DNA of 64,000 bases, from assembly GCA_937968125.1 (NCBI GenBank), contig CALBUI010000166.1:2293-66292 (forward strand). Reading direction: 5' to 3'. The DNA comes from an uncultured Anaerolineales bacterium (GTDB lineage: Bacteria > Chloroflexota > Anaerolineae > Anaerolineales > UBA4823). The translations under genes were made by a program, and so were the position numbers. Under the pieces are notes generated by a model. That model saw nothing but the letters and a program-made list of their open reading frames with translations. It had not been told where the DNA came from and made no database searches. The number at the start of each line of letters is the position of its first letter. The stretch's first letter is position 1. Positions 23,795 through 53,992 of the stretch are shown piece after piece.

Positions 23795-23847
23795 GATGAT
23801 GATTTCTCTTCCGTGTAAGACTGCCGATTGATCCCTTTCAGTATGAA

Positions 23848-24459: not shown

Positions 24460-24501
24460 GGTGTTGCTCCAGTAAAGTTGTGCCGGTTATTGGTTGCGCG
24501 G

Positions 24502-27065: not shown

Positions 27066-27100
27066 GAATATCTCCAACTGCGTTTTATGCAATTACATGC

Positions 27101-27139
27101 AATGCGTGAAACGTATGGTAATTTCACGTTTCACGCATT
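27101..27139 (-). promoter_or_regulatory. perfect 14-bp intercistronic stem-loop between ccmE and ccmF
   Basis: AATGCGTGAAACGT (27101-27114) / ACGTTTCACGCATT (27126-27139) with an 11-nt loop and no U-run. Confidence 0.5.
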
Positions 27140-27175
27140 AGGTAAACCAATAAAAATGCTAGCTGAGCACCTTAC

Positions 27176-28498: not shown

Positions 28499-28517
28499 CT
28501 GGCATCTCCTCAGATAT

Positions 28518-30238: not shown

Positions 30239-31501
30239 ATGAAAATCTTGAAATACCTTTTGATGCTCGGCGTCCTGTTGGTGGTCATCGCGGGTCTAGC
30301 AGCCTGCGCTGGCAGTGAAGGTCCTCAAGGGGAAACAGGACCAGCAGGCCCACCAGGACCAGAAGGACCCCAGGGTCCACCTGGCCAGGAAGGGCCGGCA
30401 GGACCGGCAGGACCAGAAGGTGAGGCTGCAGCAGCTGGGGCAACTGTAGGCGCTGAATATGTTGGCAGTACGACCTGTGCTGGATGCCACCAGGACATCG
30501 CGGATGTCTTTATGCAGTCAGGTCACGCCTACAAGCTCAACCCAGTCGTGGATGGGCAGCCCCCCGAATACCCCTTCACCGAGGTGACCGAACTCCCAGA
30601 AGGCTACACCTGGGATGATATTCTCTACGTGATCGGCGGCTACAACTGGAAAGCCCGTTTCGTCGATAAAGATGGCTACATCATCACCGATGAACCAGGC
30701 GCCACCGGCAATGAAGAGTATCTCAACCAGTGGAACTTCGCCAACCCCAATGTTGGCAACGAAGCCGGTTGGGCGAAATACCACTCCGGCGAGGCAGAAA
30801 AGCCCTATAACTGCGGCAGCTGCCACACGACCGCCTACAGCCCGAACGGCAACCAGGACGATCTACCGGGGCTGGTGGGCACCTGGTCGGAACCGGGCAT
30901 CATGTGCGAGGAATGCCATGGTCCTGGTGGTCTACATATGCAGAATCCACAGGGAGTCCAGATGGACATCGACCGCGATGGTGAATTGTGCGGTCAATGC
31001 CACCGCCGGGGCGACATCGAATCGGTCAACGCCAGCGGCGGGTTCATCCGGCACCACGAACAGTACGAGGAACTCTTCCAGAGCAAGCACATCACCCTCG
31101 ACTGTGTGATCTGCCACGACCCCCACGAAGGCGTGGTACAGCTGCGCATGGATGAAGAAGTACCGAACACGCGCACCCAGTGCGAGAACTGCCACCTGGA
31201 GCAGACGCAGTTCCAGGACTCGGTGATCCATCCTGGTGCAACAGAGTGCATAGATTGCCACATGCCCCGTATGGTTAAATCCGCGGTAGGCAACGCCGAA
31301 AACTTCACCGGCGATATCCGTACGCACCTGATGCGCATCAACCCAACCCAGATCGAGCAGTTTACTGAAGATGGCAGCGTTTCTCTCTCCGAAATCGGTT
31401 TGAACTTCGCCTGCCGCCACTGCCACGGCGTCACAGCATCGGAACAAACCGATGAAGCACTAATCGAGAAAGCAGTGGATTACCATACACCGACGGAGTA
31501 G
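30239..31501 (+). CDS. octahaem c-type cytochrome lipoprotein with N-terminal collagen-like Gly-X-Y stalk
   Basis: Lipobox LAAC, 13 GXY triplets, and 8 CxxCH (CAGCH, CGSCH, CEECH, CGQCH, CVICH, CENCH, CIDCH, CRHCH). RBS GAGGAGG. Confidence 0.85.
   Translation: MKILKYLLMLGVLLVVIAGLAACAGSEGPQGETGPAGPPGPEGPQGPPGQEGPAGPAGPEGEAAAAGATVGAEYVGSTTCAGCHQDIADVFMQSGHAYKLNPVVDGQPPEYPFTEVTELPEGYTWDDILYVIGGYNWKARFVDKDGYIITDEPGATGNEEYLNQWNFANPNVGNEAGWAKYHSGEAEKPYNCGSCHTTAYSPNGNQDDLPGLVGTWSEPGIMCEECHGPGGLHMQNPQGVQMDIDRDGELCGQCHRRGDIESVNASGGFIRHHEQYEELFQSKHITLDCVICHDPHEGVVQLRMDEEVPNTRTQCENCHLEQTQFQDSVIHPGATECIDCHMPRMVKSAVGNAENFTGDIRTHLMRINPTQIEQFTEDGSVSLSEIGLNFACRHCHGVTASEQTDEALIEKAVDYHTPTE
30311..30427 (+). 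repeat. collagen-like region, 13 uninterrupted Gly-X-Y triplets
   Basis: GSE GPQ GET GPA GPP GPE GPQ GPP GQE GPA GPA GPE GEA, starting two residues after the lipobox Cys. Gly codons are mixed (ggc/ggt/ggg/gga). Confidence 0.85.
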
Positions 31502-38298: not shown

Positions 38299-38941
38299 TC
38301 TTATCTCCGTGCTCATAGTCGATGATCATACAATTGTTCGCTCCGGCGTGCGCATGCTGCTGGAAGCCGAATCGGATATCAAGGTTGTTGGCGAAGCCCT
38401 AAATGGCCGAGAAGCTCTTGAATTAGTCGAAACACTCCACCCTGATGTTGTGCTAATGGATATCACTATGCCTGAGATGGATGGGCTAGAAGCTACCATG
38501 CAGCTCAAAACGCGCTTTCCCGATATCAATGTTCTCGTCCTAACCATGCACAGGTCAGATGATTACTTTTTCGAAATGCTCAAAGCAGGAGCCTCTGGAT
38601 ATATTCTCAAGGGGGCCAAGACCAGCGAACTCATTAATGCGGTCCGTATTGTTCAGCGTGGTGAGATCTTCCTGTATCCTTCGATGACTCAAAAACTCGT
38701 CCAAGGATATCTTCAGTTAGCAGATTGGGAAAACGAGGCTGAACCTTCATTGAGTCCTCGTGAAAAAGAGATTTTCCGATTGTTAGCTGAAGGCTATAGC
38801 AACAAGGAGATCGCCGAAAAGCTCGTAATCAGCCCAAGTACTGTCCATTCTCATCGCGGTAATTTAATGGAAAAGCTTGGACTCAATAATCGACGTGAAT
38901 TGATTCAATACGCTAGGAAGCGCGGTCTGATCCAGAATTAA
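38288..38941 (+). CDS. NarL/LuxR-family response regulator
   Basis: ISVLIVDDHT...DVVLMDITMPEMDG receiver and LSPREKEIFRLLAEGYSNKEIAEKLVISPSTV HTH. ATG 38288 overlaps the kinase stop. Confidence 0.9.
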   Translation: MVADLISVLIVDDHTIVRSGVRMLLEAESDIKVVGEALNGREALELVETLHPDVVLMDITMPEMDGLEATMQLKTRFPDINVLVLTMHRSDDYFFEMLKAGASGYILKGAKTSELINAVRIVQRGEIFLYPSMTQKLVQGYLQLADWENEAEPSLSPREKEIFRLLAEGYSNKEIAEKLVISPSTVHSHRGNLMEKLGLNNRRELIQYARKRGLIQN

Positions 38942-39571: not shown

Positions 39572-40906
39572 ATGCTTCGAAAACTTATATTAATAACATC
39601 AATGCTTATTCTAGCATCATTGTTCTTAGCCGCTTGTGCCGGTGATGAGGGTCCCGAGGGGCCTCAAGGACCCCAAGGACCTGCAGGACCAGCAGGAGCT
39701 CAAGGTCCCGAAGGTTCACCAGGAACCGAATTGACTGAAGAACAAGTAGCGGCGATAGCAATTGCTGAAAATCTAGGTGGTATTCAGTTCCCAGGCTTAG
39801 ACGAAGTACGTCGTGGTTGTCCCGCTTGTCATGTTCTGGTGGATGAAGAGACCGGGCAATACACACTACCTTATGAGGCTCATGAAAGGGCAGAAGCCCG
39901 CGGTGAAGAACATCCAGAGACTGCCCCAGACGGTACTTCGCTGGCAGCAACAGAAGAAGTTAATGTTACTACCTGTTTGCAATGCCATGCCGCCGGAACT
40001 GGTGACCGTGCTGGAAAAGGGGTCATTGCACCACTCGCCTTGCGTGATATCGTCCATCCTGCCCATATGTACAGCCAGTGGTTCAAGCTCCATTATGGTG
40101 GAAACTGCTTCACCTGCCACAACGTTGATGGGGAAGGAAATTGGGAGCTGCTAACGGAAAAGGTCGAAGTAAATGAGAAAGGTGTCCCCGATCCTGATGC
40201 GCTGCCGATCCCGGGTGCTGTACCAATCGGTGCAGGAACGGCATCAGGCTCAGCGGCCATTGGCGGCAGATTATATGACAAGTGGTGGAAAGAAGCTGGG
40301 GTAGATGAACCCAGTTCAGACCAACCCTTATGGGCAACTCAAACCACAAACACCCGCAGTGGTGGTGATACCTGGCGCTGCAAAGAATGCCATGGATGGG
40401 ATTACCAAGGGGCCGCGGGAGCATATGGTTCCGGTTCCCATTTCACCGGGTTCCCTGGCGTGTTCGATGTCCAGTCCGAATCCTTTGACACGATCGTTGC
40501 ATTTATTAATGGAAGCGCCAATTCAGATCACGACTTTTCTGCGATGGGCGACGAAGCCATTAACAACCTGGCTACCTTCCTGAAATCCAACCTGATCGAT
40601 GTCTCACCTTTAATTGATTCCGAGACGAAAGCTGCCATCGGAGGAGACACAGCCAACGGTGAATCTCTTTATGCTGCCTGTTCAGCCTGCCATGGTGAAG
40701 ATGGGCGCTTGATCAACTTCGGTGACGATGACGATCCAACATATGTTGGCACGGTCGCTTTAGACAACCCATGGGAATTCCTGCACAAGGTGCGCGCTGG
40801 CCAGCCTGGTACTGCTATGCCCGCTTCCTTAGATGCCGATTGGAGTATGGATGATTTGCTTGATTTGCTGGCTTTCTCCCAGACTCTACCCACCGAGGCA
40901 CCATAG
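39572..40906 (+). CDS. pentahaem c-type cytochrome lipoprotein with collagen-like Gly-X-Y stalk
   Basis: Lipobox LAAC, 10 GXY triplets and 5 CxxCH (CPACH, CLQCH, CFTCH, CKECH, CSACH). RBS GAGGAGG. Confidence 0.85.
   Translation: MLRKLILITSMLILASLFLAACAGDEGPEGPQGPQGPAGPAGAQGPEGSPGTELTEEQVAAIAIAENLGGIQFPGLDEVRRGCPACHVLVDEETGQYTLPYEAHERAEARGEEHPETAPDGTSLAATEEVNVTTCLQCHAAGTGDRAGKGVIAPLALRDIVHPAHMYSQWFKLHYGGNCFTCHNVDGEGNWELLTEKVEVNEKGVPDPDALPIPGAVPIGAGTASGSAAIGGRLYDKWWKEAGVDEPSSDQPLWATQTTNTRSGGDTWRCKECHGWDYQGAAGAYGSGSHFTGFPGVFDVQSESFDTIVAFINGSANSDHDFSAMGDEAINNLATFLKSNLIDVSPLIDSETKAAIGGDTANGESLYAACSACHGEDGRLINFGDDDDPTYVGTVALDNPWEFLHKVRAGQPGTAMPASLDADWSMDDLLDLLAFSQTLPTEAP
39641..39730 (+). repeat. 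collagen-like region, 10 uninterrupted Gly-X-Y triplets
   Basis: GDE GPE GPQ GPQ GPA GPA GAQ GPE GSP GTE, starting two residues after the lipobox Cys. Confidence 0.85.
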
Positions 40907-40930
40907 TTAGTAGCAAGATTGTAATCAGAA

Positions 40931-40956
40931 GGGCCGGAGATTTGTCTCTCCGGCCC
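40931..40956 (+). promoter_or_regulatory. intercistronic 10-bp perfect stem-loop between the pentahaem gene and actA
   Basis: GGGCCGGAGA / TCTCCGGCCC with a 6-nt loop and no U-run. Confidence 0.4.
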
Positions 40957-40988
40957 AAATCGTAATTCATCTCGCCTTTGAGGTTGGA

Positions 40989-41504
40989 ATGAAACGGTTT
41001 TGGTTGATTGGTTTATTTATATTAGTTGTGGTCGGTGTAATCGCTGGGGTAATCCTCACCCGTGTCCAGGTTTACGCAGCCCCCGAGCAGCCTATCGCAT
41101 ACAGCCACCAGGTTCATGTTGAGGCGGGTATCCAGTGTTTGTTTTGCCATCCGAGCCCCCTAAAGTCTCCGTTAGCAGGCATCCCATCTGTGCAGAAATG
41201 TATGGGATGTCACAATGTCATTGACACAGATAACCCAGAGATACAGCAGGTTGCCAGCTACTATGAAAGTGGAGAACCGATCCCTTGGATACGGGTTAAT
41301 TTACAACCTGATTTTGTTTATTTCAATCACCAGCCACACCTTGGTGCAGGTCTTAACTGTGAAACTTGTCACGGCGATGTTGGTCAGATGGATGTGACCA
41401 GACAAACCGTAAAAATGGATATGGGTTGGTGTCTAGATTGTCACATTAATCAATCGGATGAAAAAGTGGGCCGCCTTGCTGACTGCCTGGCCTGCCATAA
41501 GTGA
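40989..41504 (+). CDS. actA: ACIII subunit ActA-like membrane-anchored pentahaem cytochrome c
   Basis: N-terminal TM and 5 CxxCH in 171 aa (CLFCH, CMGCH, CETCH, CLDCH, CLACH). It is the first gene of the act-like operon. Confidence 0.8.
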   Translation: MKRFWLIGLFILVVVGVIAGVILTRVQVYAAPEQPIAYSHQVHVEAGIQCLFCHPSPLKSPLAGIPSVQKCMGCHNVIDTDNPEIQQVASYYESGEPIPWIRVNLQPDFVYFNHQPHLGAGLNCETCHGDVGQMDVTRQTVKMDMGWCLDCHINQSDEKVGRLADCLACHK

Positions 41505-41509
41505 TAAAA

Positions 41510-43723
41510 ATGACCAAGCGTGTATCTCGACGTGATTTCCTCAAGCTTACCGCAGGTGCAACAGTGGTCACTGGCCTCGCTCCGAGTGTCCGGCGAATGG
41601 TCCTTGAACCTTATGTGCAACCGCCTGAAGAAGTATTGCCAGGCGAGGCTACCTGGTATGCCAGCACGTGCCGCTTATGCCCAGCTGGATGTGGCATCAT
41701 CGTACGGGTGATCAACGGGCGTGCAAAAAAGATTGAGGGTAATCCTCACCACCCCCTCAATCAGGGAAAACTATGCGCCCGTGGGCAGGCAGGACTCCAG
41801 ATCCTCTATAACCCAGATCGCCTTAAAAACGCTGTCCTGCAGAGTGGAGGGCGGGGATCACTAAAGTTTGAACCCCTGTATTGGTCGGAAGCATTAGATA
41901 TCTTAGTTGATAAACTCGAAACCCTAAGCAACCCAAATCGAGTTGCATTCTTGGGTGGTTTGATGCCTTCGCATTTATACAAGTTAACTACTCGTTTTCT
42001 TTCGTCGTTTGGATCGTCATCGCCAATTATTTACGACTTGCATTCTGCACTTGAGGGTCGAAATTCTACGGTCCAGCTATCTGAGTCCCTCTTTGGATCC
42101 CCCGAATTACCAATATATGATCTGGCGAACGCTGAAGTGATCTTCTCATTTGGCGCAAACTTCTTGGAGACCTGGATGTCGCCAGTTTCCCAAAGCCATG
42201 CTTTTGGCACGATGCGTCAAGGGCAGCTTGGGGGTCGTGGATTTCTTGTCCATTTTGAGCCACGCCTCTCCGCTACCGCTGCTTCTGCTGACGAGTGGAT
42301 TCCTATAAAACCAGGTGCCGAGGGTTACGTCGCTTTGGCGATTGGCCGCATTATCCTTGAGGAACGCCTTGGTCAAGCAAGCAGTCACCGCCCATATTCA
42401 ATTCTATATCAAAACGTGGATGTGCAAGAGATGGCGGATGCCAGCCAGATTCCGGTCGAAGTTTTGCACCGCTTTGCACGTATTTTCGCCGATGCCGACC
42501 AGGCCATTGCAATTCCCGGTGGGGGCTTAGCTGGGCAGCACAATGGAGGCACCAGCATGCTGGCCGTACAAGCCCTCAATTTGCTGAGCGCTCAAATCGG
42601 AAGGGTGGGCGGAGTTTTCCTGTCTCAACCCGGACCCACAGCTGGCTTTCGCCAGAATCCAAATCCAGGATCGTTTGAAAATCTATCGATCTTAATTGAA
42701 CGCATGAAATCCGGAGAAATCGACCTCCTGTTGATCTACGGCACAAACCCGGTGTTCGAACTGCCAACCTCAGCGGGATTTGCTGAGGCGATCGCTAGCG
42801 TGCCTTATGTTATTTCTTTCAGCCAATTTGTCGATGAGACTGCGGCGCGAGCTGATCTGATCCTGCCTGACCACACTTACCTTGAATCCTGGGGCTATGA
42901 AGTGCCTGCACCCGGAGCTGCGAAACCTGCAGTAAGCAGTCAACAACCTGTTGTGCGACCACTTTACGATACACGATCCACTGGAGATGTTCTCCTGGCA
43001 GTTGCCGAACGGTTGGGAGGTCAAGTTGCCAATGCACTGCCTTGGTCCGATGAGGTAGATTTCCTGCAAGAATTAGCCACTGAATTGCATGGATCCTCCT
43101 TGGGTGCTTATGATGCTAAGACTCCGAGTAGTTTCTGGGCCCTCTGGCGGCAGTATGGTGGCTGGTGGACTGAAAAGGAAATCCCTCGCGAGCCTGATAT
43201 CTCCACAATTGTCCAGGAGCCTATACCTGTGTCCGAGCCTGTTTTCGATGGAGAGGAAAATTCATACCCCTATCACCTGCACCCATATCCATCGATAACG
43301 CTCTCTGATGGAAGGGGTGCCAACCTGCCCTGGTTGCAGGGAGCGCCAGATCCGATGACCACCGTATGTTGGGGAACTTGGGTGGAATTAAATCCCGAGA
43401 CTGCCAGCTCATTAGGGGTAAGCGAGGATGATGTTGTGCGAGTGATCTCACCCCATGGTGAATTGGAAGCACCTGTCGTCATCTATCCTGGAATTCGACC
43501 TGATGTCGTCGCAATCCCGGTTGGGCAGGGACACGAACAATTTGGTCGATTTGCAGAACAACGCGGGAGCAACCCCATTGCACTGGTAGCTTCAATTACC
43601 GACCCAGAGACTGGCTCACTTGCTTGGGGTGCAACCCGCGTACGAATAGAACCAACTGGACGTAAAAAGAGCCTGGCCAGATTAGAGAGTCTAGCCGGGG
43701 AAGGACGTGAATCTATTGGCTGA
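41510..43723 (+). CDS. actB: ActB1/QrcB-like molybdopterin-oxidoreductase-family subunit (Tat signal), separate polypeptide
   Basis: SRRDFLKLTAGA Tat signal and CRLCPAGC-x27-C (CX2CX3CX27C FS0-type motif). About 737 aa. The start is ATG 41510, or GTG 41501. Confidence 0.8.
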   Translation: MTKRVSRRDFLKLTAGATVVTGLAPSVRRMVLEPYVQPPEEVLPGEATWYASTCRLCPAGCGIIVRVINGRAKKIEGNPHHPLNQGKLCARGQAGLQILYNPDRLKNAVLQSGGRGSLKFEPLYWSEALDILVDKLETLSNPNRVAFLGGLMPSHLYKLTTRFLSSFGSSSPIIYDLHSALEGRNSTVQLSESLFGSPELPIYDLANAEVIFSFGANFLETWMSPVSQSHAFGTMRQGQLGGRGFLVHFEPRLSATAASADEWIPIKPGAEGYVALAIGRIILEERLGQASSHRPYSILYQNVDVQEMADASQIPVEVLHRFARIFADADQAIAIPGGGLAGQHNGGTSMLAVQALNLLSAQIGRVGGVFLSQPGPTAGFRQNPNPGSFENLSILIERMKSGEIDLLLIYGTNPVFELPTSAGFAEAIASVPYVISFSQFVDETAARADLILPDHTYLESWGYEVPAPGAAKPAVSSQQPVVRPLYDTRSTGDVLLAVAERLGGQVANALPWSDEVDFLQELATELHGSSLGAYDAKTPSSFWALWRQYGGWWTEKEIPREPDISTIVQEPIPVSEPVFDGEENSYPYHLHPYPSITLSDGRGANLPWLQGAPDPMTTVCWGTWVELNPETASSLGVSEDDVVRVISPHGELEAPVVIYPGIRPDVVAIPVGQGHEQFGRFAEQRGSNPIALVASITDPETGSLAWGATRVRIEPTGRKKSLARLESLAGEGRESIG

Positions 43724-44420
43724 GATTGAACCACGCTGGGTGTTAATCGTAGATCTTGACCGCTGTACTGGCTGCCAGGCATGTGTGGTCGCTTGCCAGG
43801 CAGAAAACAATGTGCCTACGGTAGGTGAGCATGAGACGATAGAAGGACGTTGGTTGCACTGGATCCATATTGAGCGCTATTGGGAAGGTGAATATCCAAA
43901 TATCAAGGCGCGTTTTATGCCGGTCATGTGCCAGCAATGCACCGCAGCCCCTTGTGAACCAGTATGTCCCGTGTTTGCTACCTATCACACTCCAGAAGGC
44001 CTGAATGCCCAGATCTACAACCGCTGCATTGGCACGCGCTTCTGTGGAAGCGCCTGCCCATACAAAACTCGTACTTACAATTGGCTGCGACCTGAATTCC
44101 CTGAACCATTGCACGAGCAGCTCAATCCCGATGTGACCGTCCGCTCTCGTGGTTTGATCGAGAAATGCACGTTCTGCGTCCAGCGCATCAGGCGAATTGA
44201 AATTGAAGCCCATGCCCAGGGACGAGAACCAGTTGATGGCGAGATTCAACCAGCCTGTGTGCAAACCTGCCCACCTGATGCATTAGTCTTTGGTGACCTG
44301 AATGACCCAAGTAGCCGGGTCAGCCAGCTGGCGACGAGCCATCGATCTTTTAAACTCTTGGGCGAGCTTGGTACAGATCCGGGCGTGATTTACTTGAAAG
44401 GAGGCGAGACGAATGTCTGA
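43707..44420 (+). CDS. actB: ActB2/QrcC-like 4Fe-4S ferredoxin-type subunit
   Basis: CTGCQACVVAC, CQQCTAAPCEPVCP, CIGTRFCGSACP and CTFCVQR...C cluster motifs, typical of the CISM FeS subunit. Confidence 0.85.
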   Translation: MNLLAEIEPRWVLIVDLDRCTGCQACVVACQAENNVPTVGEHETIEGRWLHWIHIERYWEGEYPNIKARFMPVMCQQCTAAPCEPVCPVFATYHTPEGLNAQIYNRCIGTRFCGSACPYKTRTYNWLRPEFPEPLHEQLNPDVTVRSRGLIEKCTFCVQRIRRIEIEAHAQGREPVDGEIQPACVQTCPPDALVFGDLNDPSSRVSQLATSHRSFKLLGELGTDPGVIYLKGGETNV

Positions 44421-45834
44421 ATCAGAGGTATTAGCGTACCCTGAGGATAGTAGCGCTGCAGAATTCGAAGATCGCTTGCTGCTCGCCGAACGGACAAGCT
44501 CAGAGATCAATCAAGCTGTGCTCCAACCTATGTTTCGCACAAGTTGGAAGTTTTGGGCACTGGTGATATTTCTAAGCTTATTGGTGCTGTGGGGCCTTTT
44601 TGCCTGGGGATACCTAATATATTGGGGAATGGGCACCGCGGGTATCAATCGACCGGTTTATTGGGGCTTTTTTATCGCCACCTTCGTTTTCTGGGTCGGT
44701 ATCAGCCACGCAGGAACGATGATCTCCGCTGTGTTGCGCTTACTTAAAGCAGATTGGCGCAGACCCATCACGCGGGGCGCGGAGGCGATGACTGCTTTCG
44801 CGCTGATGATGGCTGGGTTGTTCCCATTCATCCATCTGGGCAGGGTGTGGAAATTCTATTGGATGCTCCCCTACCCCAATAACCGCTTAATGTGGCCAAA
44901 TTTCCAATCGCCTCTGATGTGGGATATGGTTGCCATCTTCACCTATTTTATTGGTTCGACCCTTTATCTCTATCTTGCTTTGATCCCGGACCTTGCTATG
45001 GCCCGCGATCACACAGGTAAATGGCGCCAGAAATTGTATCGAGTTTTATCTCTCGGATGGCGCGGCACGGAGGCAGAATGGCACAAGCTCCACCGTGCCT
45101 TGAGCATCTTTTCCGTGGCGATTATCCCGATTTTCCTCTCTGTCCACTCCATTGTGTCCTGGGATTTTGCAGTTACGATTCAACCTCGCTGGCACAGCAC
45201 AATATTCGCACCATACTTCGTGGTCGGTGCAATTTATTCAGGACTGGCTGCCCTTGCCTGCATCCTGGTCATCGTTCGCAAGGGAATGCAGCTGCAGGAA
45301 TTTTTGCGTTCTGAACACTTCGACGCATTGGGTAAATTGGTCCTGGTGGCAGGAATGGCCTGGGTTTATTTCTGGTTCGCCGGATTTATTGTTGAATGGT
45401 ATGGCAACGAACCCGTGACCCGCGAACTGATCCATGAGGAAGTCGCTGGGAGTTTGGCACCCCTCTTCTACCTGCAGATGTCTGCCAACCTGATTCCTAT
45501 CGTCATGCTTATTTTCAAGAAAGTTCGCACCACGCCTTGGTTATTGCTGGTGGCGACACTATTAGTGAATGTCGGCATGTTTACTGAGCGCGTGTTAATT
45601 GTAGTTGGCAACTTGCAGCGAAATTTCATGCCTTTCAATTGGGGTGAATACAGCCCAACTTGGGTTGAAGTGAGCATCGTGGTGATGACTTTCGCAGGAT
45701 TTGCGCTCCTATATACAATATTTTCCCGTATCTTCCCCTACGTACCGGTCTGGGAGATCAAGGAAGGCCGCCTGCGGTACACCGTACGCCGCATCGGTCG
45801 ATTATTAGTGCCAACCGCTGCTGAGATCGAGTAG
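44413..45834 (+). CDS. actC: ActC/NrfD/PsrC-like polytopic quinone-interacting membrane subunit
   Basis: 473 aa with about 10 TM helices. It immediately follows the FeS subunit with an overlapping start. Confidence 0.8.
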   Translation: MSESEVLAYPEDSSAAEFEDRLLLAERTSSEINQAVLQPMFRTSWKFWALVIFLSLLVLWGLFAWGYLIYWGMGTAGINRPVYWGFFIATFVFWVGISHAGTMISAVLRLLKADWRRPITRGAEAMTAFALMMAGLFPFIHLGRVWKFYWMLPYPNNRLMWPNFQSPLMWDMVAIFTYFIGSTLYLYLALIPDLAMARDHTGKWRQKLYRVLSLGWRGTEAEWHKLHRALSIFSVAIIPIFLSVHSIVSWDFAVTIQPRWHSTIFAPYFVVGAIYSGLAALACILVIVRKGMQLQEFLRSEHFDALGKLVLVAGMAWVYFWFAGFIVEWYGNEPVTRELIHEEVAGSLAPLFYLQMSANLIPIVMLIFKKVRTTPWLLLVATLLVNVGMFTERVLIVVGNLQRNFMPFNWGEYSPTWVEVSIVVMTFAGFALLYTIFSRIFPYVPVWEIKEGRLRYTVRRIGRLLVPTAAEIE

Positions 45835-45852
45835 CGGCTGAGGAATTTTCCA

Positions 45853-46380
45853 ATGAGTGAAAATGAAATTTCTCTGGTAGCCCTCTTTGAAAAAAGCACT
45901 GACACTGCCAAGGCGATTGACGATTTGCATACTCTGGGTATCCCGGATGACAGGATGGTGGTGATGACCGATGTACCTTATCCTGAACAGGCCTTAGGGA
46001 GAACCCGAGAATGGTCATCCTTACCCTATATCGTACTTGCAGGAGCAATCGTTGGGTTGCTTATAGGATTGTTCCTATCGGCCATCACGCCACATCTTTA
46101 TCGTCTGGACGTGGGCGGTCATCCTCCAGTCGGTTTTCCGCCCGCAGCGGTGATCACTTTCGTTTTCACGATGATGGCGATCATTGTATCGACATTTCTT
46201 GGTGTACTTTGGGAAATGGACTTCCCCAGTTTTGGTCCAGCCCCTTATCACAAAGCCGTCACAGACGGCCAGCTGGCGATACTCATAGAATTCTCCCCTG
46301 ACCTGGATGATAAAGTCAACCAGGTGCTTAAAGCCAACCAGGCTGATTACATCGGCGAACCGGAGATGATTTCGCTATGA
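45853..46380 (+). CDS. actD: ActD-like (DUF3341) membrane subunit
   Basis: 175 aa with a soluble N-domain (LVALFEKSTDTAKAIDDLHTLGIPDD) and two TM helices. The position after actC supports the call. Confidence 0.6.
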   Translation: MSENEISLVALFEKSTDTAKAIDDLHTLGIPDDRMVVMTDVPYPEQALGRTREWSSLPYIVLAGAIVGLLIGLFLSAITPHLYRLDVGGHPPVGFPPAAVITFVFTMMAIIVSTFLGVLWEMDFPSFGPAPYHKAVTDGQLAILIEFSPDLDDKVNQVLKANQADYIGEPEMISL

Positions 46381-46886
46381 GTCCTCGTTTGCAGCGTGGA
46401 TTACTCATAATTGCCGTCTTACTGACCCCGTTCATCGTCGGACTCTTGTTCACCTACGAGATCTTAAAAATCCCCTTTACCACAGACATGCAAAACCAGA
46501 TCTCAATAAATTACCAGGAAAGCCCTCGGATTTTGCCTCCTGATGGTGCCGTTCCCGTGCAAGGGCTGGCAATTATTCCTGATGAATTTCCAGTAAATCC
46601 GATTCCAGCGGATCCGGTCTCGCTGCAGCGCGGCAAAATTCTCTATGATATTCACTGTCAGTTATGTCATGGAGAAATGGGGCATGGAGATGGACCATTA
46701 GCGAAATATTTTGACCGCACACCCCAGAATTTGACCAGCTCCCAGATCACCACAGAATTCGATGGGGCAGTCTATTTAACGATATTGAATGGTTTTGGTC
46801 AGATGCCAGCCCTATACGAGAACCTGTCCCCTCATGAAACTTGGGACGTGGTGAATTATCTTCACACTCTGCCTGCGAGGGAATAA
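46377..46886 (+). CDS. actE: ActE-like membrane-anchored monohaem cytochrome c
   Basis: N-terminal TM and a single CQLCHGEMGHGDG class-I haem site. ATGA overlap with actD. Confidence 0.7.
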   Translation: MSPRLQRGLLIIAVLLTPFIVGLLFTYEILKIPFTTDMQNQISINYQESPRILPPDGAVPVQGLAIIPDEFPVNPIPADPVSLQRGKILYDIHCQLCHGEMGHGDGPLAKYFDRTPQNLTSSQITTEFDGAVYLTILNGFGQMPALYENLSPHETWDVVNYLHTLPARE

Positions 46887-46892
46887 GAAAAG

Positions 46893-47939
46893 ATGACAAA
46901 TAAAATCGCAATCTTATCCTCAACCATTATTTTGTTATTGACTGCTTGTGCCGCTCCTCAAAGCCTTCCTTCAGGTCCGACACCAATACCAACCCTCATT
47001 CCAGCCACGGAGCCAAGCGATCCTTTGACAGCAACAGCGGTGCCATCGTTTTCCATCCAGAGCTACCCTGCCGGGCTTCCCTCAGCTGAACTCGGCCAGG
47101 AGCTTTATCAGACAAATTGTGCAAGTTGTCACGGCGAGGACGGGAATGGAGTTGTGCCTGGTGCACGCAATTTTGGTGATTTGGATTATATGCGCGGAGA
47201 AACCCCCGCCTCTTTTTATTCAACGGTCACAGAAGGACGAGGTGAAATGGAGGGCTTTCGCGACTTAATGACCTCGGATGAGATTTGGGATGTCATCTTT
47301 TATGTATGGCGTTTTTCTACGGATGCTGAAACACTTGCCCTTGGAGGACACCTGTACGAAGCAAATTGCCAGGTTTGCCATGGAATGGATGGTACCGGGG
47401 AAGTATTGGGGGCCGCTGATCTCTCCGACCTTCGTTTTGTTGACAACCAGGCTCCCCGAGATTTCTACTTGATCACCACCCAAGGCAAAGGCTCGATGCC
47501 AGCCTGGCAGGGACGGCTTTCCCAGGAAGAACGCTGGGCAGTAATTGACTATGTGCGCACATTCTCTTATGACCCAACCATCCCAGGAGAAACTGTTGCC
47601 CAACCTCCTCCGACAGCAGCTGTCGAAGAAATCGTATGTGACCCGAATTACCTGGCACAAACTAACCCCTTTGATTGGAGTGATCCAGCTGTTTCCATCG
47701 CTGGTCAGGTGATTTATGACCAGGCCTGCGGTATGTGTCATGGAGTTGATGGCTCAGGCGGTATCCCAGGTACCCCTGATTACACCAAACCCGATATCAC
47801 GGAGGATTTACGCACCAATAGCGGTGAAAAATTATGTATTGTTGCTGAGGGCAGTAAATCAATGCCTGGATGGAAAGAGACGCTTACCGATCAGCAAATG
47901 TGGGAGGCGCTAACTTACATCTATTCATTCGGAAAGTAG
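46893..47939 (+). CDS. trihaem (3 x class-I cytochrome c domain) lipoprotein
   Basis: Lipobox LTAC, then CASCHGEDGNG, CQVCHGMDGTG and CGMCHGVDGSG, each followed by a distal Met region (SMPAW/SMPGW). Confidence 0.8.
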   Translation: MTNKIAILSSTIILLLTACAAPQSLPSGPTPIPTLIPATEPSDPLTATAVPSFSIQSYPAGLPSAELGQELYQTNCASCHGEDGNGVVPGARNFGDLDYMRGETPASFYSTVTEGRGEMEGFRDLMTSDEIWDVIFYVWRFSTDAETLALGGHLYEANCQVCHGMDGTGEVLGAADLSDLRFVDNQAPRDFYLITTQGKGSMPAWQGRLSQEERWAVIDYVRTFSYDPTIPGETVAQPPPTAAVEEIVCDPNYLAQTNPFDWSDPAVSIAGQVIYDQACGMCHGVDGSGGIPGTPDYTKPDITEDLRTNSGEKLCIVAEGSKSMPGWKETLTDQQMWEALTYIYSFGK

Positions 47940-47985
47940 GATTCAATGATCTTTCAACTGTCGATTGTGGAAAGATAGGAAAACC

Positions 47986-48093
47986 AACTGGATCTACATC
48001 GCTCACGAGGATGGCAGCCTGGGAGTCCACAACCCGGCTTACACTAGGGACTTGCTCGACGCATCACTGGAAACATTGGGGTTATGGGGATAG
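47986..48093 (+). pseudogene. 36-codon remnant of the 3' end of a paralogue of the hexahaem cytochrome gene
   Basis: About 93 percent nucleotide identity by eye to 49622-49730. It translates to NWIYIAHEDGSLGVHNPAYTRDLLDASLETLGLWG*, against NWIYIAHEDGSLGVHNPAYTRALLDASLETLGLGGQ* in the intact gene. The frame is closed by TAG at 47977 with no start. Confidence 0.75.
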
Positions 48094-48488
48094 TAATAGT
48101 CCCTTCTGACGAAAATTTAGTTCGGCAACCACACATTATCACATAACTGTTGTGCAAGTTTCTATCATCAGCTTGCACAGTATTGTTTTAATAGTGTGTC
48201 CTTTTTCAAACCCAGGTGAACTAACCCAATGCGAACGAACAAATTGGAATTGCAACGGGCAGCTTCAATTGACAGCTACACCTTTGAGTTTAATGACCCT
48301 AACATGATAACAAATAGGAAAACCGTGCGCGACAAAGAATACCCCTCCCGGATCGGATCGAATCAGCCATACTGAAATTACACAACTTAGTTAAGTGCTC
48401 TTCCTACTTCTTCTGAAGGATGAGAGGAGAAACTCAATACATTTGTCACAGCGGGAAAAGTGACATATAATACTAATACTATATTCAT

Positions 48489-48654
48489 AATTGGGTTATA
48501 AATCTTATGTAAAACTACCCAATTCGTAACTGACATCATAGGGGGGTAGCGGGTAGTCGTATTCCCATTGAAAAACAGAAAGGAGGTTGCCTATCAGCTT
48601 ATAGAAGAAAAAGATCGCCCCCAATATCATTGTAGAAAGTGTATCCGGATACAC
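48489..48654 (+). promoter_or_regulatory. conserved upstream/leader region of the hexahaem gene (inverted repeat, TATAAA box, 16-bp palindrome)
   Basis: AATTGGGT (48489-48496) ... ACCCAATT (48517-48524) flank GTTATAAATC. GTGTATCCGGATACAC lies at 48639-48654, 14 nt before the ATG. The block is duplicated at 50230-50395. Confidence 0.5.
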
Positions 48655-48667
48655 ACAAGGAGAATGC

Positions 48668-49730
48668 TATGAAACATAAACATCTTTTGGTGGTGCTCTT
48701 GCTGCTGGTAGTCATGGCTCTGGCTGCCTGCGCAGGCTCCCAAGGCGAGCAGGGCGAGCAAGGTCCTCCCGGTCCCCAGGGTGAGCAAGGTTCCCCAGGG
48801 CCTGAAGGCCCTCCTGGACCTGAGGGTCCGGCAGGCGCCGCCGGTGCCGATGCCGAAATGGGCGACCTGACCTGCACGGAGTGCCACAACGACGGCACGG
48901 AGCTTGCTGGGAGGGCAACCGCCTGGGCTGATTCCGTGCATGGAATGGGTGAAGCTTATGTGCGTGGAACCCGTGCCAGCTGCGCTGGTTGTCACTCCGG
49001 CGGCGGCTTCAGCGCCAAGGTGGCTGCAGGTTTGAACCCGGACGAGGTTGAAGCAGGGGATCCAAACCCCACTCGCCAGGACTGCCGTGCCTGCCACCAG
49101 ATCCATGTGACTTACACAGGTGAAGACTGGGCATTGGAGACCGAAGACCCGGTGGATTTCTATGCTTTTGAAGGTGTGACCTACGATGGCGGCGATGGCA
49201 ACCTGTGCGCCAACTGCCATCAGCCAAGGCGCGGAATTGCTGAGCCAGATGCCGATGGCAATATCGAAGTCACCAGCACGCACTGGGGACCCCACCACGG
49301 TGGGCAGGGCTCCATGTTGATGGGCGTGGCTGGCTCGCCTGATGTCGAAGGCAGCCCCAGCTCGCATGCCACAATGGTGGAAGATACTTGCGTTGCCTGT
49401 CACATGGGAGAGGAATATAACCACTCCTTCGAACCTGAGGTGGAGCGCTGCCAGGAATGCCACACTGATATGGAAAGCTTCGATGACACCGGCTTGCAGA
49501 CCGAGGTCCAGGAGAAGCTGGATCAACTGGAAGCAGAGCTGCTTGCCAGGGGTTGGCTTGATGAAGAAGGTCACCCGGCGGTAACGTTCGTTCCCGCTCC
49601 AGAAGCTTACGCCCTATGGAACTGGATCTACATCGCCCACGAGGATGGCAGCCTGGGAGTCCACAACCCGGCTTACACCAGGGCATTACTCGACGCATCA
49701 CTGGAAACATTAGGGTTGGGAGGGCAGTAA
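48668..49730 (+). CDS. hexahaem c-type cytochrome lipoprotein with collagen-like Gly-X-Y stalk
   Basis: MKHKHLL signal, lipobox LAAC, 13 GXY triplets and 6 CxxCH (CTECH, CAGCH, CRACH, CANCH, CVACH, CQECH). RBS AAGGAG precedes ATG 48668. The track ORF start at 48639 lies inside the conserved leader. Confidence 0.85.
48734..48850 (+). repeat. collagen-like region, 13 uninterrupted Gly-X-Y triplets
   Basis: GSQ GEQ GEQ GPP GPQ GEQ GSP GPE GPP GPE GPA GAA GAD, starting two residues after the lipobox Cys. Confidence 0.85.
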
Positions 49731-49881
49731 AAGAGGCAATTGATTCTGGCTTTTTTGCTATATTGTAATCAGGCCAAATCTCCTCGACATCAATTTACTG
49801 GATATCGGTGGAGATGTCTCCGGGAACATGAAACCGGCAGTAACACTGTAACCAACAACACTATCATCACCCACTGAATCA

Positions 49882-49913
49882 ATAACCGGGCAATGTTAGA
49901 ACTGCCCGGTTAT
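49882..49913 (+). terminator. possible terminator downstream of the hexahaem gene
   Basis: 11-bp stem ATAACCGGGCA / TGCCCGGTTAT with an 11-nt loop, followed by TTCCATTT (a weak U-run). Confidence 0.35.
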
Positions 49914-50229
49914 TTCCATTTCACTCTTCGGAAACCGAATTCTCCTTTAATTGTACATCTCTAATACAAATCATTTTTCTTTGAACTTGTATTTTAGGAT
50001 GAATTGCTTGGAATGTTGCACCAACAAATTCAATCCTCTGCCAAAGTAATGATTGGCATTGCAATTGGTTACACCAATTTCATCCACAAGGATTGGATCT
50101 AATCAAGTACTCTCAAAACTAAAATTCAACCTGACCCAAAATCAATATTTCCTGTTTCATAGAGGATGAAAGTTACAATACATTCGTCACATCTTGAAAT
50201 GTGACGAAATTCACTAATTTAATACTCAT

Positions 50230-50395
50230 AATTGGGGTATAAATCATATGCAAAGTTACCCAATCTAGACCTGGCAGCGAATGGGGGTTGCCGGGTGCTA
50301 GCTGCTATTGTTGAAGAACAGGAAGGAGGTTGCTTATCAGTCAATAGAAGAAGGAACGCCCTACATCTTATTGTCAGAAGTGTATCCGGATACAC
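50230..50395 (+). promoter_or_regulatory. conserved upstream/leader region of the decahaem gene (paralogous to 48489-48654)
   Basis: AATTGGGG ... TACCCAAT flank GTATAAATC. GTGTATCCGGATACAC lies at 50380-50395, 15 nt before the ATG. A further upstream palindrome TCGTCACAT-CTTGAA-ATGTGACGA lies near 50184-50207. Confidence 0.5.
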
Positions 50396-50409
50396 TCAAG
50401 GAGAATGAT

Positions 50410-52608
50410 ATGAAACACAAACATCTTTTGGTTGGGCTCTTGCTGCTGGCAGCTGCCATGGCTCTGGTAGCCTGCGGCACCCCCAGCCCGACTGCAGAGG
50501 CCACACCCTGTCCCGAAGCACCGCCCTGCCCGGACTGTCCTGAGGCACCAGCTTGCCCGGACTGCCCAGAATGTCCAGAGCCGGAAGTTGCGTTGGTACC
50601 CTTCGAGGAAGAGTGGGCCAATTCCCCCCACAACGATGCGGAAGCGGAAGCTTTCACCCACTGGGATGAGGATGATCCTGCCGAGATTCCCCCCAACTGT
50701 GCCAAGTGCCACAGCACTCCGGGCTACATTGCCTTTATGGGCGCTGATGGCAGCGAGTTTGGCGTCATTGAGGGACCCGCCCCGATCGGCACCACCGTCG
50801 AGTGCGCGGCCTGCCACAATGAAGCTACCTTGGATCACGACAGCGTGGTCTTCCCCTCCGGTCTTGAATTGACCGATATGGGCGACCAGGCACGCTGCAT
50901 GGAGTGCCACCAGGGTCGTTCGTCCAAGGTGACCGTGGATGAGAACATCGCCGAAGCAGTTGGCGAGGATCTCGACACGGTTAGCGAAGACCTGGGCTTC
51001 ATCAACATCCACTACTACGCGGCCGGCGCAACCCGCTACGGAACCGAAGTGAAGGGTGGCTATGAGTATGATGGCCTGGAGTACGATCCCCGCTTTGACC
51101 ACGTCGAAGGCTACCAGTCCTGCATCAACTGCCACGACATGCACACCCTCGAGCTCAAGCTTGAAGAATGTGCAGTCTGCCATGAAGGCGTAGCCAGTGT
51201 CGAAGACGTTAAGGCGATCCGCTTCGTCGGCTCGCTGAACGACTACAACGGCAACGGCAACGTCGAAGAATCGATCATGGCTGAGATGGCTGGCCTGCAG
51301 GAACTACTCTACCAGAACATCCGGGCTTACGCCGCGGAAGTAGCTGGCTCGCCGATCGTTTATGATTCGCACGCCTATCCATACTTCTTCATCGACACCA
51401 ACGCCGATGGCGAAGCCGGTGAAGATGAAGCCAACTACGGAAACCAGTACGCTTCCTGGACCGGACGCCTGCTGCAGGCCGCGTATAACTACCAGGTCTC
51501 GCAGAAGGATCCCGGCGCATATGCCCACGGCGGCAAGTACATCATCCAGCTGCTCTACGACTCGATCGCCGATCTGAACGATCAGGTCGCCAGCCCGGTT
51601 GACATGACTCCCTTGCACCGCGAGGACCCGGGTCACTTCGCCGCATCTGGTGAACCCTGGCGCCACTGGGATGAGGATGGTGAAGTTTCGGCCAGCTGCT
51701 CCAAGTGCCACTCGGCTGAAGGTCTACCCACCTTCCTGACTACTGGTGGAGATACATATCCACAGCCGGTCGCCAGCGGCTTGAACTGCGCTTCCTGCCA
51801 CGACGATCTGACCACCTTCACCCAGTACCCCTCTGAGGAAGTTGAATTCCCCAGCGGCGCAGTGGTGACGTTTGAGGATCCCACAGCCAATCTGTGCCTC
51901 AACTGCCACCAGGGTCGCCAATCCGGGCCGGGTGTGGAGGCGCGCATCGTTTCTTCAGGTGCTGCTGATGATGAAGTATCTGCATCGCTTTCATTCAGCA
52001 ACCCGCACTACTTCGCTGCCGGAGCAACGCTGTTCGGCACCGAAGTTCAGGGCGCCTATGAGTTCACGGGCCAGTCCTACAACGGCCGCTTCATGCATGT
52101 CCAGGGTTTCCAGGCCTGCATCGAATGCCACGACACCCACGAGCTGAAGGTCAAGGTCGACCAATGCGGTACCTGCCACGGCATCTCCAGTGAAGAAGAA
52201 CTGCATGATATCCGCATGACGGATGTCGACTTCGATGGTGATGGCGACACTTCTACAGGTATCGCAGTGGAAGTGATGAACGTCAATGATGCCATCTTGG
52301 ATGCCATCTACGTCTACGCTGCTGAAGTAGCCGGTACACCGATCGTCTTCGAAAGTCACTCTTACCCCTATTGGTTCGTTGATACCAATGGTGATGGCGT
52401 GGCTGACCCAGATGAAGCTCAATATGCCAACCAATACAATGCATGGACCCCGCGCTTGCTGCGGGCGGCATACAATTACACCTGGGCTCTCAAGGATCCC
52501 GGCTCGTACGCTCACAATGGGCTGTATATGCTCCAGGTTCTCTACGACACCCTGCAGGATATCGGTGGTGATGTCTCTAGCATGACCCGCCCCGCAGTGG
52601 CCCAGTAG
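50410..52608 (+). CDS. decahaem c-type cytochrome lipoprotein (2 x pentahaem internal duplication) with N-terminal Cys-Pro hinge-like repeat
   Basis: MKHKHLL signal, lipobox LVAC, and CPEAPPCPDCPEAPACPDCPECPE. 10 CxxCH (CAKCH, CAACH, CMECH, CINCH, CAVCH, CSKCH, CASCH, CLNCH, CIECH, CGTCH). The two halves are alignable by eye. Confidence 0.85.
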   Translation: MKHKHLLVGLLLLAAAMALVACGTPSPTAEATPCPEAPPCPDCPEAPACPDCPECPEPEVALVPFEEEWANSPHNDAEAEAFTHWDEDDPAEIPPNCAKCHSTPGYIAFMGADGSEFGVIEGPAPIGTTVECAACHNEATLDHDSVVFPSGLELTDMGDQARCMECHQGRSSKVTVDENIAEAVGEDLDTVSEDLGFINIHYYAAGATRYGTEVKGGYEYDGLEYDPRFDHVEGYQSCINCHDMHTLELKLEECAVCHEGVASVEDVKAIRFVGSLNDYNGNGNVEESIMAEMAGLQELLYQNIRAYAAEVAGSPIVYDSHAYPYFFIDTNADGEAGEDEANYGNQYASWTGRLLQAAYNYQVSQKDPGAYAHGGKYIIQLLYDSIADLNDQVASPVDMTPLHREDPGHFAASGEPWRHWDEDGEVSASCSKCHSAEGLPTFLTTGGDTYPQPVASGLNCASCHDDLTTFTQYPSEEVEFPSGAVVTFEDPTANLCLNCHQGRQSGPGVEARIVSSGAADDEVSASLSFSNPHYFAAGATLFGTEVQGAYEFTGQSYNGRFMHVQGFQACIECHDTHELKVKVDQCGTCHGISSEEELHDIRMTDVDFDGDGDTSTGIAVEVMNVNDAILDAIYVYAAEVAGTPIVFESHSYPYWFVDTNGDGVADPDEAQYANQYNAWTPRLLRAAYNYTWALKDPGSYAHNGLYMLQVLYDTLQDIGGDVSSMTRPAVAQ
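50509..50586 (+). repeat. Cys-Pro-rich hinge-like segment (six CP dipeptides in 26 aa)
   Basis: CPEAPPCPDCPEAPACPDCPECPEPE, located where the paralogues carry the collagen-like stalk. Confidence 0.8.
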
Positions 52609-53062: not shown

Positions 53063-53992
53063 TTATTCAGTTCTCAACCGCGTCCCGCAGGAGCGGCAGA
53101 AACGGTCACCTGGTCCAGCCCGTTTTCCGCACTGGTGGCAGTAAATGGCGCTTCCCATGGCTACCTCACCTTCCTCCCGACTAGGTGCCTTGTGGTGGCG
53201 GCGCTTCGTCGGTTCTGGCTCTTGTCTGCCCATGCGCCAATACCAGAAGCCACCACCACCGATCAGTACTAATCCAAGGCCAACCAACATCCATACCCAC
53301 CACTGTCCCAGGTTGAGCAGGCTGCTGGTCCCAGGCGTGATCGTCGCGCTGGGCTGGATCTGGAAGTTCTCCACGCTCAAGGCATCGGATTCTTTCTGAT
53401 AACTCATTAAGATGTCAAAAACTGAACCTTGATCCAGCGCTCCAACATCAATTATGTTGTAGGTGAAACCATTGGAATCTTGAATTATCCTGCCCTGGGT
53501 GGGTGTCACGGTGACATCCGTTGCCCCCAGGGGGTGCTGGACCTGGAGTGTCAGCGCGTCCACCACGTAATCTCCCGGCCAGGTGAAATCAAAGCTGCGC
53601 TGCGCCCCGTCCTTTACCAGCCTGGGATCATAATACTCAAACTGGATCGCAGGTGTGGTGGCGATAAAAGATACATCCATCCAATCGCCCATCACCTGGG
53701 TATCGTAAACAACATCGGCTACCGACCGGGCATCCGGACCGACTGCGACCACTGCTGGAGCGCCAGCCTGCACCGGCATACGGAATGTGATCTCCGCAGG
53801 CAAACTCACCTCTGGTGACAGCATAGCTTTGTAAATCACCAGCATACTGGGATTGTCATATTCCGGCCAGAGATCGACGACTAAAGTTTCTAGACTGGGT
53901 GACTCTTGTGCTTTTGTTGCGGGGACAAAAATAATTAAGGTGAATAAACAAATAAAGACGATTTTCTTTACCAAGCGCCGTTCTCCATCCAT
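53063..53992 (-). CDS. hypothetical single-pass membrane protein: signal peptide, about 200-aa extracytoplasmic domain, TM, cytoplasmic zinc ribbon
   Basis: N-terminal signal, TM WWVWMLVGLGLVLIGGGGFWYW, and C-terminal YCHQCG...FCRSCG. Confidence 0.55.
   Translation of the reverse strand: MDGERRLVKKIVFICLFTLIIFVPATKAQESPSLETLVVDLWPEYDNPSMLVIYKAMLSPEVSLPAEITFRMPVQAGAPAVVAVGPDARSVADVVYDTQVMGDWMDVSFIATTPAIQFEYYDPRLVKDGAQRSFDFTWPGDYVVDALTLQVQHPLGATDVTVTPTQGRIIQDSNGFTYNIIDVGALDQGSVFDILMSYQKESDALSVENFQIQPSATITPGTSSLLNLGQWWVWMLVGLGLVLIGGGGFWYWRMGRQEPEPTKRRHHKAPSREEGEVAMGSAIYCHQCGKRAGPGDRFCRSCGTRLRTE

Follow-up and report, generated by a model that had tools for sequence, protein, structure and literature searches.

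The 64,000-nucleotide stretch analysed here (the window; contig CALBUI010000166.1 of an uncultured Anaerolineales bacterium) encodes, at 48669-49730, a hexahaem c-type cytochrome in which a collagen-like segment of Gly-X-Y (GXY) triplets stands between a predicted lipid anchor and the haem domain. The gene and its parts are as follows.

48669..49730 (+): hexahaem lipoprotein cytochrome gene, 353 amino acids, ATG at 48669, stop codon ending at 49730
48669..48731 (+): lipoprotein signal peptide, read from the sequence, with n-region MKHKH, h-region LLVVLLLLVVMA, lipobox L-A-A-C and Cys21
48735..48851 (+): collagen-like segment, 13 uninterrupted Gly-X-Y triplets, residues 23-61
48852..49727 (+): hexahaem domain, residues 62-353, ending in three long C-terminal helices
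48873-48887, 48981-48995, 49083-49097, 49206-49220, 49389-49403, 49449-49463 (+): CxxCH motifs in the hexahaem domain
H91, H146, H209, H233, H252, H332: conserved extra histidines of the hexahaem domain

The N-terminus (MKHKHLLVVLLLLVVMALAAC) has the features by which bacterial lipoproteins are predicted, namely a signal with a charged n-region, a hydrophobic core (h-region) and the lipobox LAAC. A single Ala separates Cys21, which is at least 90% conserved in alignment A1, from the first triplet, and the run then reads GSQ GEQ GEQ GPP GPQ GEQ GSP GPE GPP GPE GPA GAA GAD. The first CxxCH motif lies seven residues further downstream in a haem domain of ~290 residues, and the six motifs are CTECH, CAGCH, CRACH, CANCH, CVACH and CQECH. 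The features expected of a multihaem c-type cytochrome were likewise found, comprising six CxxCH motifs, six conserved His, an export signal and a Ccm system I. The Pfam Collagen model PF01391 matched with 30.8 bits (cut-off 27.2), and generic multihaem models matched as well. On these sequence features, the hexahaem protein is a lipoprotein-type c-type cytochrome carrying a collagen-like segment. This agrees with the original prediction, whose LAAC lipobox, 13 triplets and six CxxCH motifs were all recovered; the gene start and the GXY span had each been placed one base off.

Conservation of the collagen-like segment

In a six-frame scan of all 64 kb, we found just three GXY runs of at least six triplets in real genes (30311-30427, 39641-39730 and 48735-48851), each directly behind the LAACA lipobox of a c-type cytochrome, an arrangement that chance does not explain. 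A fourth run represents an antisense frame of the linker of the decahaem gene described below. The hexahaem gene had been proposed to be the third collagen-like cytochrome in this part of the genome, which holds, as the genes starting at 30239 and 39572 have 13 and 10 triplets, respectively. Other linkers in the window are Pro/Thr-rich (gene at 46893) or Cys/Pro-rich (gene at 50410), and neither shows Gly periodicity.

The same arrangement recurs among the relatives with complete N-termini, where a lipobox Cys followed by in-phase GXY was present in 102 of 103 Anaerolineales-like sequences (7-23 triplets), 100 of 113 Bacteroidota-like sequences and 92 of 124 representatives at 50% identity. 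Across relatives, the run starts one residue past the Cys, spans ~80-86% of the linker and comprises 3-23 triplets. The glycines are the sole columns of the putative stalk that are conserved to at least 90% in alignment A1. Positions X and Y vary, with Pro in X in 62% of the triplets of close relatives and Ala, Gln, Glu or Pro in Y. The original prediction had staked its case on conservation of the GXY segment in orthologues, and full-length relatives from several phyla have indeed retained it, with few exceptions. This pattern of conservation indicates that the collagen-like segment is under selection and is not a local oddity.

In order to relate the segment to the anchor, we ran a script over all sequences collected, which considered runs of at least four triplets. 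It paired 288 GXY runs with a lipobox Cys and flagged 8 others as being without one; six of these 8 were inspected by eye and all have a lipobox Cys, hence the count of 296 out of 296. None of the 11 sequences without a lipobox contains a GXY run, and 27 lipoprotein relatives have a linker with few or no triplets. This coupling ties the collagen-like segment to the lipid anchor, as would be expected for a spacer that sets a distance from the membrane.

Homologues of 290 amino acids that lack the stalk were considered as a sign that it is dispensable. We rejected this, since gene callers have cut them short at an internal Met: of the 120 closest homologues, 17 (P0003, P0005, P0007 and 14 others, mostly JGI calls) start at such a position, for example with 'MGDLTCTECH', and at locus L001 (5809-6873) the DNA upstream of such a start encodes, in frame, a signal peptide followed by 12 triplets. 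Gene callers often drop the N-terminal part that defines the family. The view of the stalk as a purely single-membrane-envelope adaptation was also rejected, because members from Bacteroidota, Ignavibacteria and Neomarinimicrobiota have it too.

The haem domain and its family

The six CxxCH motifs hardly vary at all among 271 diverse members (conservation of at least 99.6% per column), and exactly six further His are conserved, H91, H146, H209, H252 and H332 at 99-100% and H233 at 93%. No CxxCK motif was present in the 150 representatives checked. This combination fits six bis-His haems and a role in electron transfer rather than catalysis, and we read the domain as a probable electron carrier with six low-spin bis-His haems and no open catalytic site.

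A first AlphaFold model, based on 56 close homologues, reached a pLDDT of 69, with low quality in the N-terminal half of the haem domain; a second model, from a 121-sequence alignment, took its place (pLDDT 93, pTM 0.90). In the Foldseek comparison of the latter with the PDB, NrfA of two Geobacter species and of E. coli, MccA and HAO filled ranks 1-9 and 12; the NrfA matches had a TM score of ~0.40, E values of 0.05-0.2 and probabilities of 0.44-0.72, and no match reached E ≤1e-3. The earlier, weaker model had matched octahaem nitrite reductases. Comparison of the family with E. coli NrfA by hhalign gave a probability of 44% and an E value of 2e-4 across the last two haem motifs. PF02335 did not match the hexahaem query and gave sub-threshold matches in relatives (17-18 bits, cut-off 24.1), and the Pfam and NCBIfam cut-offs for NrfA were not reached by the hexahaem protein. 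A distant relationship of the haem domain to the NrfA/HAO superfamily is possible. Sequence and profile searches of the haem domain against the PDB yielded only weak matches to MtrC (best E value 0.003 over ~35 residues) and matches to other cytochromes at E >0.1. The model of the OmcA/MtrC family, TIGR03507, scored 20.4 bits against a cut-off of 209, while the generic haem-domain model PF22113 passed with 40 versus 30 bits.

A sequence search of 5.8 billion proteins returned at least 1,811 matches to the hexahaem protein. The best 120 of these are 59-92% identical, and every functional name among them is 'hypothetical protein', except for two JGI entries named 'nitrate/TMAO reductase-like tetrahaem cytochrome c subunit'. 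When the haem-domain profile was compared exhaustively with 1.84 billion cluster representatives, 1,652 were found at E ≤1e-3, 998 at 1e-10 and 288 at 1e-30, which amounts to a family of ~1,000 clusters at 50% identity (E ≤1e-10) that has no family name. Most representatives combine a lipobox Cys, 3-13 triplets and six CxxCH motifs, and many carry Bacteroidota-style signals and Asp-rich triplets like SCEGPAGKDGKDG. A second search, seeded from such a Bacteroidota-style member, recovered Bacteroidales, Ignavibacteria, Neomarinimicrobiota, Latescibacteria, Dehalococcoidales and Chloroflexota, with the database names 'hypothetical', 'collagen-like protein' and 'cytochrome c3 family protein'.

In a species-level genome collection, 221 loci encode a relative, and locus counts given here cover the best 80 of these 221. 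All 80 are from metagenome-assembled genomes (MAGs), the majority being Anaerolineales and the others labelled Actinomycetota, Planctomycetota and further phyla. Copies labelled Chloroflexota or Actinomycetota have the lipobox and GXY, and the nine Planctomycetota copies that could be read are all stalkless behind an ordinary Sec signal. Further N-terminal modules occur: L029 and P0126 have a transmembrane helix with a Ser/Thr/Pro-rich linker instead, and in P0125, P0127, P0135, P0141 and P0144, as well as in L061 and L078, exactly one S-layer-homology (SLH) motif (PF00395) replaces the lipobox and GXY, scoring 40-54 bits in five family members. Chains with a single SLH work as homotrimers; in SlpA, for example, the SLH domains form a trimer that caps one end of a trimeric rod (PMC9388160). 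By analogy, the replacement in the five P-series relatives may be an independent hint of a trimer. The hexahaem domain was also found repeated, with extra haems, in fusion proteins consisting of three 8-haem units (P0153) or two 9-haem units each (P0170 and P0223).

Genomic neighbourhood, tandem array and leader

The remaining features of the window that concern the hexahaem gene are listed here.

30239..31501 (+): multihaem lipoprotein with 13 GXY triplets, unrelated to the hexahaem protein, ahead of Rieske/cytochrome b complex genes
39572..40906 (+): cytochrome lipoprotein with 10 GXY triplets, first gene of the alternative complex III (ACIII) operon 39572-47939
47986..48099 (+): last 36 codons (relic) of an upstream hexahaem paralogue since lost, 89% identity with 49620-49733 over 114 nt
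48435..48668 (+): upstream cassette (promoter and leader), duplicated before the decahaem gene
48443..48471 (+): sigma-70-like promoter TTGTCA-17-TATAAT, 11/12 consensus matches, inside the block shared with the decahaem gene
48640..48653 (+): perfect 14-bp palindrome TGTATCCGGATACA, 3 nt 5' of the Shine-Dalgarno sequence AAGGAG (48657-48662)
49871..49904 (+): GC-rich terminator-like hairpin AATAACCGGGCA / TGCCCGGTTATT, downstream of the stop codon, read from the sequence
50176..50409 (+): second copy of the upstream cassette, containing the palindrome at 50381-50394
50410..52608 (+): decahaem lipoprotein cytochrome (2 x 5 haems), distant paralogue and frequent genomic partner

Judged by its gene content, the window is a respiratory island. 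The stalked cytochrome at 30239 is followed, up to 36699, by NapC-like, Rieske, cytochrome b and cytochrome b-C/multi-c genes, and 3' of the ACIII operon lie the remnant, the hexahaem gene and the decahaem gene. Two histidine-kinase/LuxR-type regulator pairs are also present, their LuxR-type response regulators lying at 27806-28534 and 38213-38941, as is a complete Ccm system I operon (18798-27703, minus strand) encoding CcmA, B, C, E, F, H and a thioredoxin-like protein. Embedded in the latter are genes for a 677-aa multi-domain cytochrome c (21271-23304, minus strand) and a zinc-ribbon protein; a similar zinc-ribbon membrane protein (53063-53992) accompanies the hexahaem gene in 18 of the 80 loci. 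Ahead of the respiratory genes, three large genes in the region 4067-16808 encode a 2,039-aa bacterial alpha-2-macroglobulin, an S9 prolyl oligopeptidase and a 1,273-aa DUF5060 protein that also has a 'putative collagen-binding domain of a collagenase' (PF12904).

The hexahaem gene lies directly 3' of ACIII in the window, in L001 and in L084. Within 8 kb of it, the 80 loci encode a Rieske/cytochrome b complex (22 loci), a NapC-like protein (24), a regulator pair (~19), the decahaem cytochrome (12) and ACIII subunits (~6). In Bacteroidota-like loci, the hexahaem gene follows an operon of Fer4_11, NrfD and monohaem cytochrome c, and a Phycisphaerales chromosome has a stalkless hexahaem gene beside one for a 708-aa decahaem protein, that pair only. 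From this survey, the recurring partners of the hexahaem cytochrome are quinol-interacting membrane complexes and the decahaem protein. On the two Bacteroidota-like chromosomes L090 and L091 (~2000-9100), the stalked hexahaem gene comes last in a conserved operon that has a divergent Crp-type regulator gene and also encodes a 128-aa protein, DUF5777, a 4Fe-4S protein, NrfD, a 285-aa protein and a monohaem cytochrome c. By its composition, this operon looks like an uncharacterised NrfCD-type quinol module.

The hexahaem gene had been assigned to a tandem paralogue array with a duplicated 36-codon remnant. The array is real and its history can be read, the remnant being confirmed by the repeat finder; the decahaem gene, however, is only a distant paralogue (27-29% identity between the hexahaem protein and each pentahaem half), with near-identity limited to the promoter/leader/signal cassette. 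On the 4.5-Mb Chloroflexota chromosome of L084, ACIII is followed by hexahaem A, hexahaem B and the decahaem gene, A and B both being intact with 13 triplets each. In the window and in the Anaerolineales MAG L004, which share 86% identity over 5.2 kb, copy A has shrunk to its final 36 codons, with copy B and the decahaem gene following in that order. Since L084 keeps both copies and the window and L004 only the end of copy A, the remnant is a deletion relic of a tandem paralogue. L001 and L005 have one hexahaem gene, and the decahaem gene is absent there. The relic still reads as an intact 42-codon open reading frame (47965-48093; L004 counterpart at 541-654) and is ~92% identical to the 3' end of the live gene across two genomes that are 86% identical overall, an identity that may reflect gene conversion or recent loss. 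In place of GXY, the decahaem linker CPEAPPCPDCPEAPACPDCPECPEPE (50509-50586, residues 34-59) is Cys/Pro-rich with seven non-haem Cys, and a similar CP-rich linker is found in the L084 orthologue (10845-11144); it is a possible disulfide-rich or metal-binding stalk. Comparison of the decahaem protein with solved structures found nothing.

That the hexahaem and decahaem genes have their upstream and signal regions in common, as originally noted, was borne out by the repeat finder, with 73-86% identity over four blocks between 48435-48732 and 50176-50476. Because this cassette is far more alike than the two coding regions, the sequences suggest that it was spread by recombination. The promoter position implies a leader of ~190 nt, and the promoter block is conserved in L001. 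An exact second copy of the palindrome precedes the decahaem gene, and exact copies lie ~29 bp before the hexahaem start codons in ten loci (L001-L005, L008-L010, L084 and L085; for example L001 at 5780-5793 and L084 at 7972-7985 and 9519-9532). The palindrome thus shows no change between these ten loci, whose proteins have diverged to ~70% identity, and it is a candidate operator for a LuxR-type regulator of the window or a candidate hairpin for translational control. Rfam found no known RNA element in the conserved leader; a weak chance match to a miRNA concerned the terminator-like hairpin only, and the scan that gave the promoter did not list this hairpin.

A possible electron relay and its relation to known systems

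Taken together, we assign a probability of about one half to the reading that the hexahaem protein is a lipid-anchored, stalk-mounted electron-transfer cytochrome in which a trimeric collagen stalk carries an 18-haem head that acts as an electron relay. The gene has a promoter of its own, a conserved leader with the palindrome beside its ribosome-binding site and the terminator-like hairpin at the other end, and haem attachment would fall to the Ccm system of the window. Three chains would join through a collagen-type triple helix, forming a rigid spacer with three lipidated cysteines at its base and the trimeric head on top; at 0.286 nm for each of the 39 residues, its length would be ~11 nm. 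The head would receive electrons from the quinol oxidisers encoded nearby, namely ACIII, the Rieske/cytochrome b complex and their stalked cytochromes, and would hand them on, most likely to the partner decahaem protein and to acceptors located within the cell wall or further out. The trimer is suggested by the strict and widespread Gly phase while the rest of the linker drifts, by the full coupling to the lipid anchor and by the single-SLH replacement.

Several points weigh against this relay. The triple-helical nature of the GXY segment is inferred from sequence, the structural models being of single chains, and a helix of 13 triplets that lacks hydroxyproline would be short and only marginally stable by itself; some relatives have just 3-5 triplets. 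The stalk occurs in the two-membrane Bacteroidota and Ignavibacteria as well as in Chloroflexota, so that a role in spanning a thick single-membrane wall does not by itself account for it. A stalk of 11 nm would put the head far from the membrane-level haems of ACIII, which places the donor assignment in doubt, and no terminal acceptor is encoded in the window. The multi-copy fusions, threefold in one protein and twofold in two, point to no single stoichiometry, and, given the links to NrfA by Foldseek and hhalign, an enzymatic ancestry or function retains a small probability.

The shortness of the GXY run, here and in the relatives with the fewest triplets, would also suit a monomeric, extended, protease-resistant polyproline-II-like tether, on which a monomeric lipoprotein cytochrome would diffuse near the membrane as on a leash. 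Hydroxyproline is not expected in bacteria, other lipoprotein cytochromes of the window have Pro-rich linkers that are not collagen-like, and the 27 lipoprotein relatives with few or no triplets have an anchor all the same. The spacers of PgcA, which consist of PTx repeats (PMC5732950), point in the same direction. A leash, however, needs no Gly at every third position, and in ~300 sequences that belong to several phyla this phase runs unbroken through ~80-86% of the linker, holding while X, Y and the number of triplets drift. The single SLH that substitutes for the N-terminal part moreover functions as a trimer (PMC9388160). On balance, we consider the leash unlikely, albeit a serious contender. 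The haem domain could alternatively be a divergent NrfA/HAO-type enzyme, that is, a membrane-tethered terminal enzyme that reduces or oxidises a small compound of nitrogen or sulfur. NrfA, MccA and HAO are its sole fold matches, the octahaem nitrite reductases matched by the first model, the hhalign similarity at the last two haem motifs and the sub-threshold PF02335 matches are in line with them, and the Bacteroidota-like loci resemble nrfCD operons with a Crp/Fnr-type regulator. Yet six conserved non-motif His for six haems leave no obviously open haem (H233 is missing in 7% only), CxxCK is absent from the 150 representatives checked, and neither fold nor sequence gave a significant match or reached an NrfA cut-off, which makes an enzyme distinctly improbable.

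The original prediction had speculated on a link to OmcS, and polymerisation of the hexahaem protein into an OmcS-like conductive filament was weighed as a further possibility. What the two have in common is only the count of six bis-His-type haems, and the lineage is rich in multihaem cytochromes, with possible extracellular electron transfer (PMC7399161). Structure prediction with Foldseek and the sequence and profile searches lent the link no support: OmcS, OmcE and OmcZ gave no sequence or profile match to the hexahaem protein at E up to 10, and these three and MtrC are absent from the 20 listed Foldseek matches of the high-confidence model. Homology to OmcS, OmcE or OmcZ was rejected, as nothing was found by sequence, profile or fold. 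A lipid anchor and a trimerising stalk would in addition favour a cell-bound unit over a free polymer, and we regard a filament as highly improbable.

We extend the stalk-mounted relay tentatively, and at less than even odds, to the proposal that collagen triple helices serve as rigid, length-tunable pedestals for respiratory cytochromes. The hexahaem protein and at least two unrelated cytochromes of this genome (10 and 13 triplets) would then be lipid-anchored trimers whose multihaem heads form a relay tier ~9-11 nm above the membrane, between quinol oxidoreductases and acceptors in the wall or outside the cell. They would represent an undescribed class in Chloroflexota, Actinomycetota, Bacteroidota, Ignavibacteria and other phyla. 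This touches the question of how electrons travel from membrane quinol oxidoreductases to the wall and beyond in Chloroflexota and others without porin-cytochrome conduits, lineages often met in sediments, in sludge and in communities on anodes (PMC7399161). If multihaem cytochromes carry a conserved spacer whose length is defined, this offers a concrete structural idea for the wall-crossing step, and natural fusions of collagen and haem protein are relevant to the design of conductive biomaterials. If the segment is only a flexible leash, what is left is a new but ordinary family of electron-transfer lipoproteins. We found no published description of a collagen-like cytochrome in the full-text literature searched, which lacks most papers from subscription journals. 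The component parts are all of known kinds, and it is their conserved combination and the haem-domain family that appear to be undescribed.

The collagen-like part resembles Scl1/Scl2 of Streptococcus, BclA of Bacillus and Lcl of Legionella, in which a hydroxyproline-free Gly-X-Y run likewise stands beside a globular, possibly trimer-nucleating domain, and with which the hexahaem protein shares the variable triplet number and the cell-surface 'lollipop' layout; weak NCBIfam matches to Lcl and SclA were also obtained. Scl2 has ~79 triplets, compared with 13 in the hexahaem protein. The anchor differs too, being a predicted lipidated N-terminal Cys at the base of the putative helix as opposed to LPXTG or the exosporium, and the head is a six-haem redox domain. 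The head in turn shares long C-terminal helices with NrfA, octahaem nitrite reductase, MccA and HAO (TM ~0.40) and has a local profile likeness to E. coli NrfA at the last two haem motifs (CxxCHM ... CxxCH). It is, however, smaller (~290 versus ~440-520 residues), lacks CxxCK, conserves extra His and gave no significant match.

With OmcS, the hexahaem protein shares six c-type haems, apparently bis-His in both, but neither sequence nor fold, and the lipid anchor and collagen-like segment are found on the hexahaem side. Its nearest functional analogue is PgcA of Geobacter sulfurreducens, a trihaem lipoprotein cytochrome with PTx repeats that is implicated in electron transfer beyond the membrane (PMC5732950). 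Both are lipoprotein multihaem cytochromes with a Pro-rich tandem-repeat spacer; in PgcA, the repeats lie between haem units, have no Gly periodicity and give no collagen-type circular dichroism, the haems number three and the haem domains are unrelated. In its proposed architecture, the hexahaem cytochrome would finally resemble Lpp (Braun's lipoprotein) and the SLH and coiled-coil proteins SlpA/OmpM, trimeric rods anchored at one end that set distances in the cell envelope, and some of its relatives carry the same single-SLH module as SlpA. The rod would be a collagen triple helix in place of a coiled coil, and its cargo a redox domain in place of a structural link.

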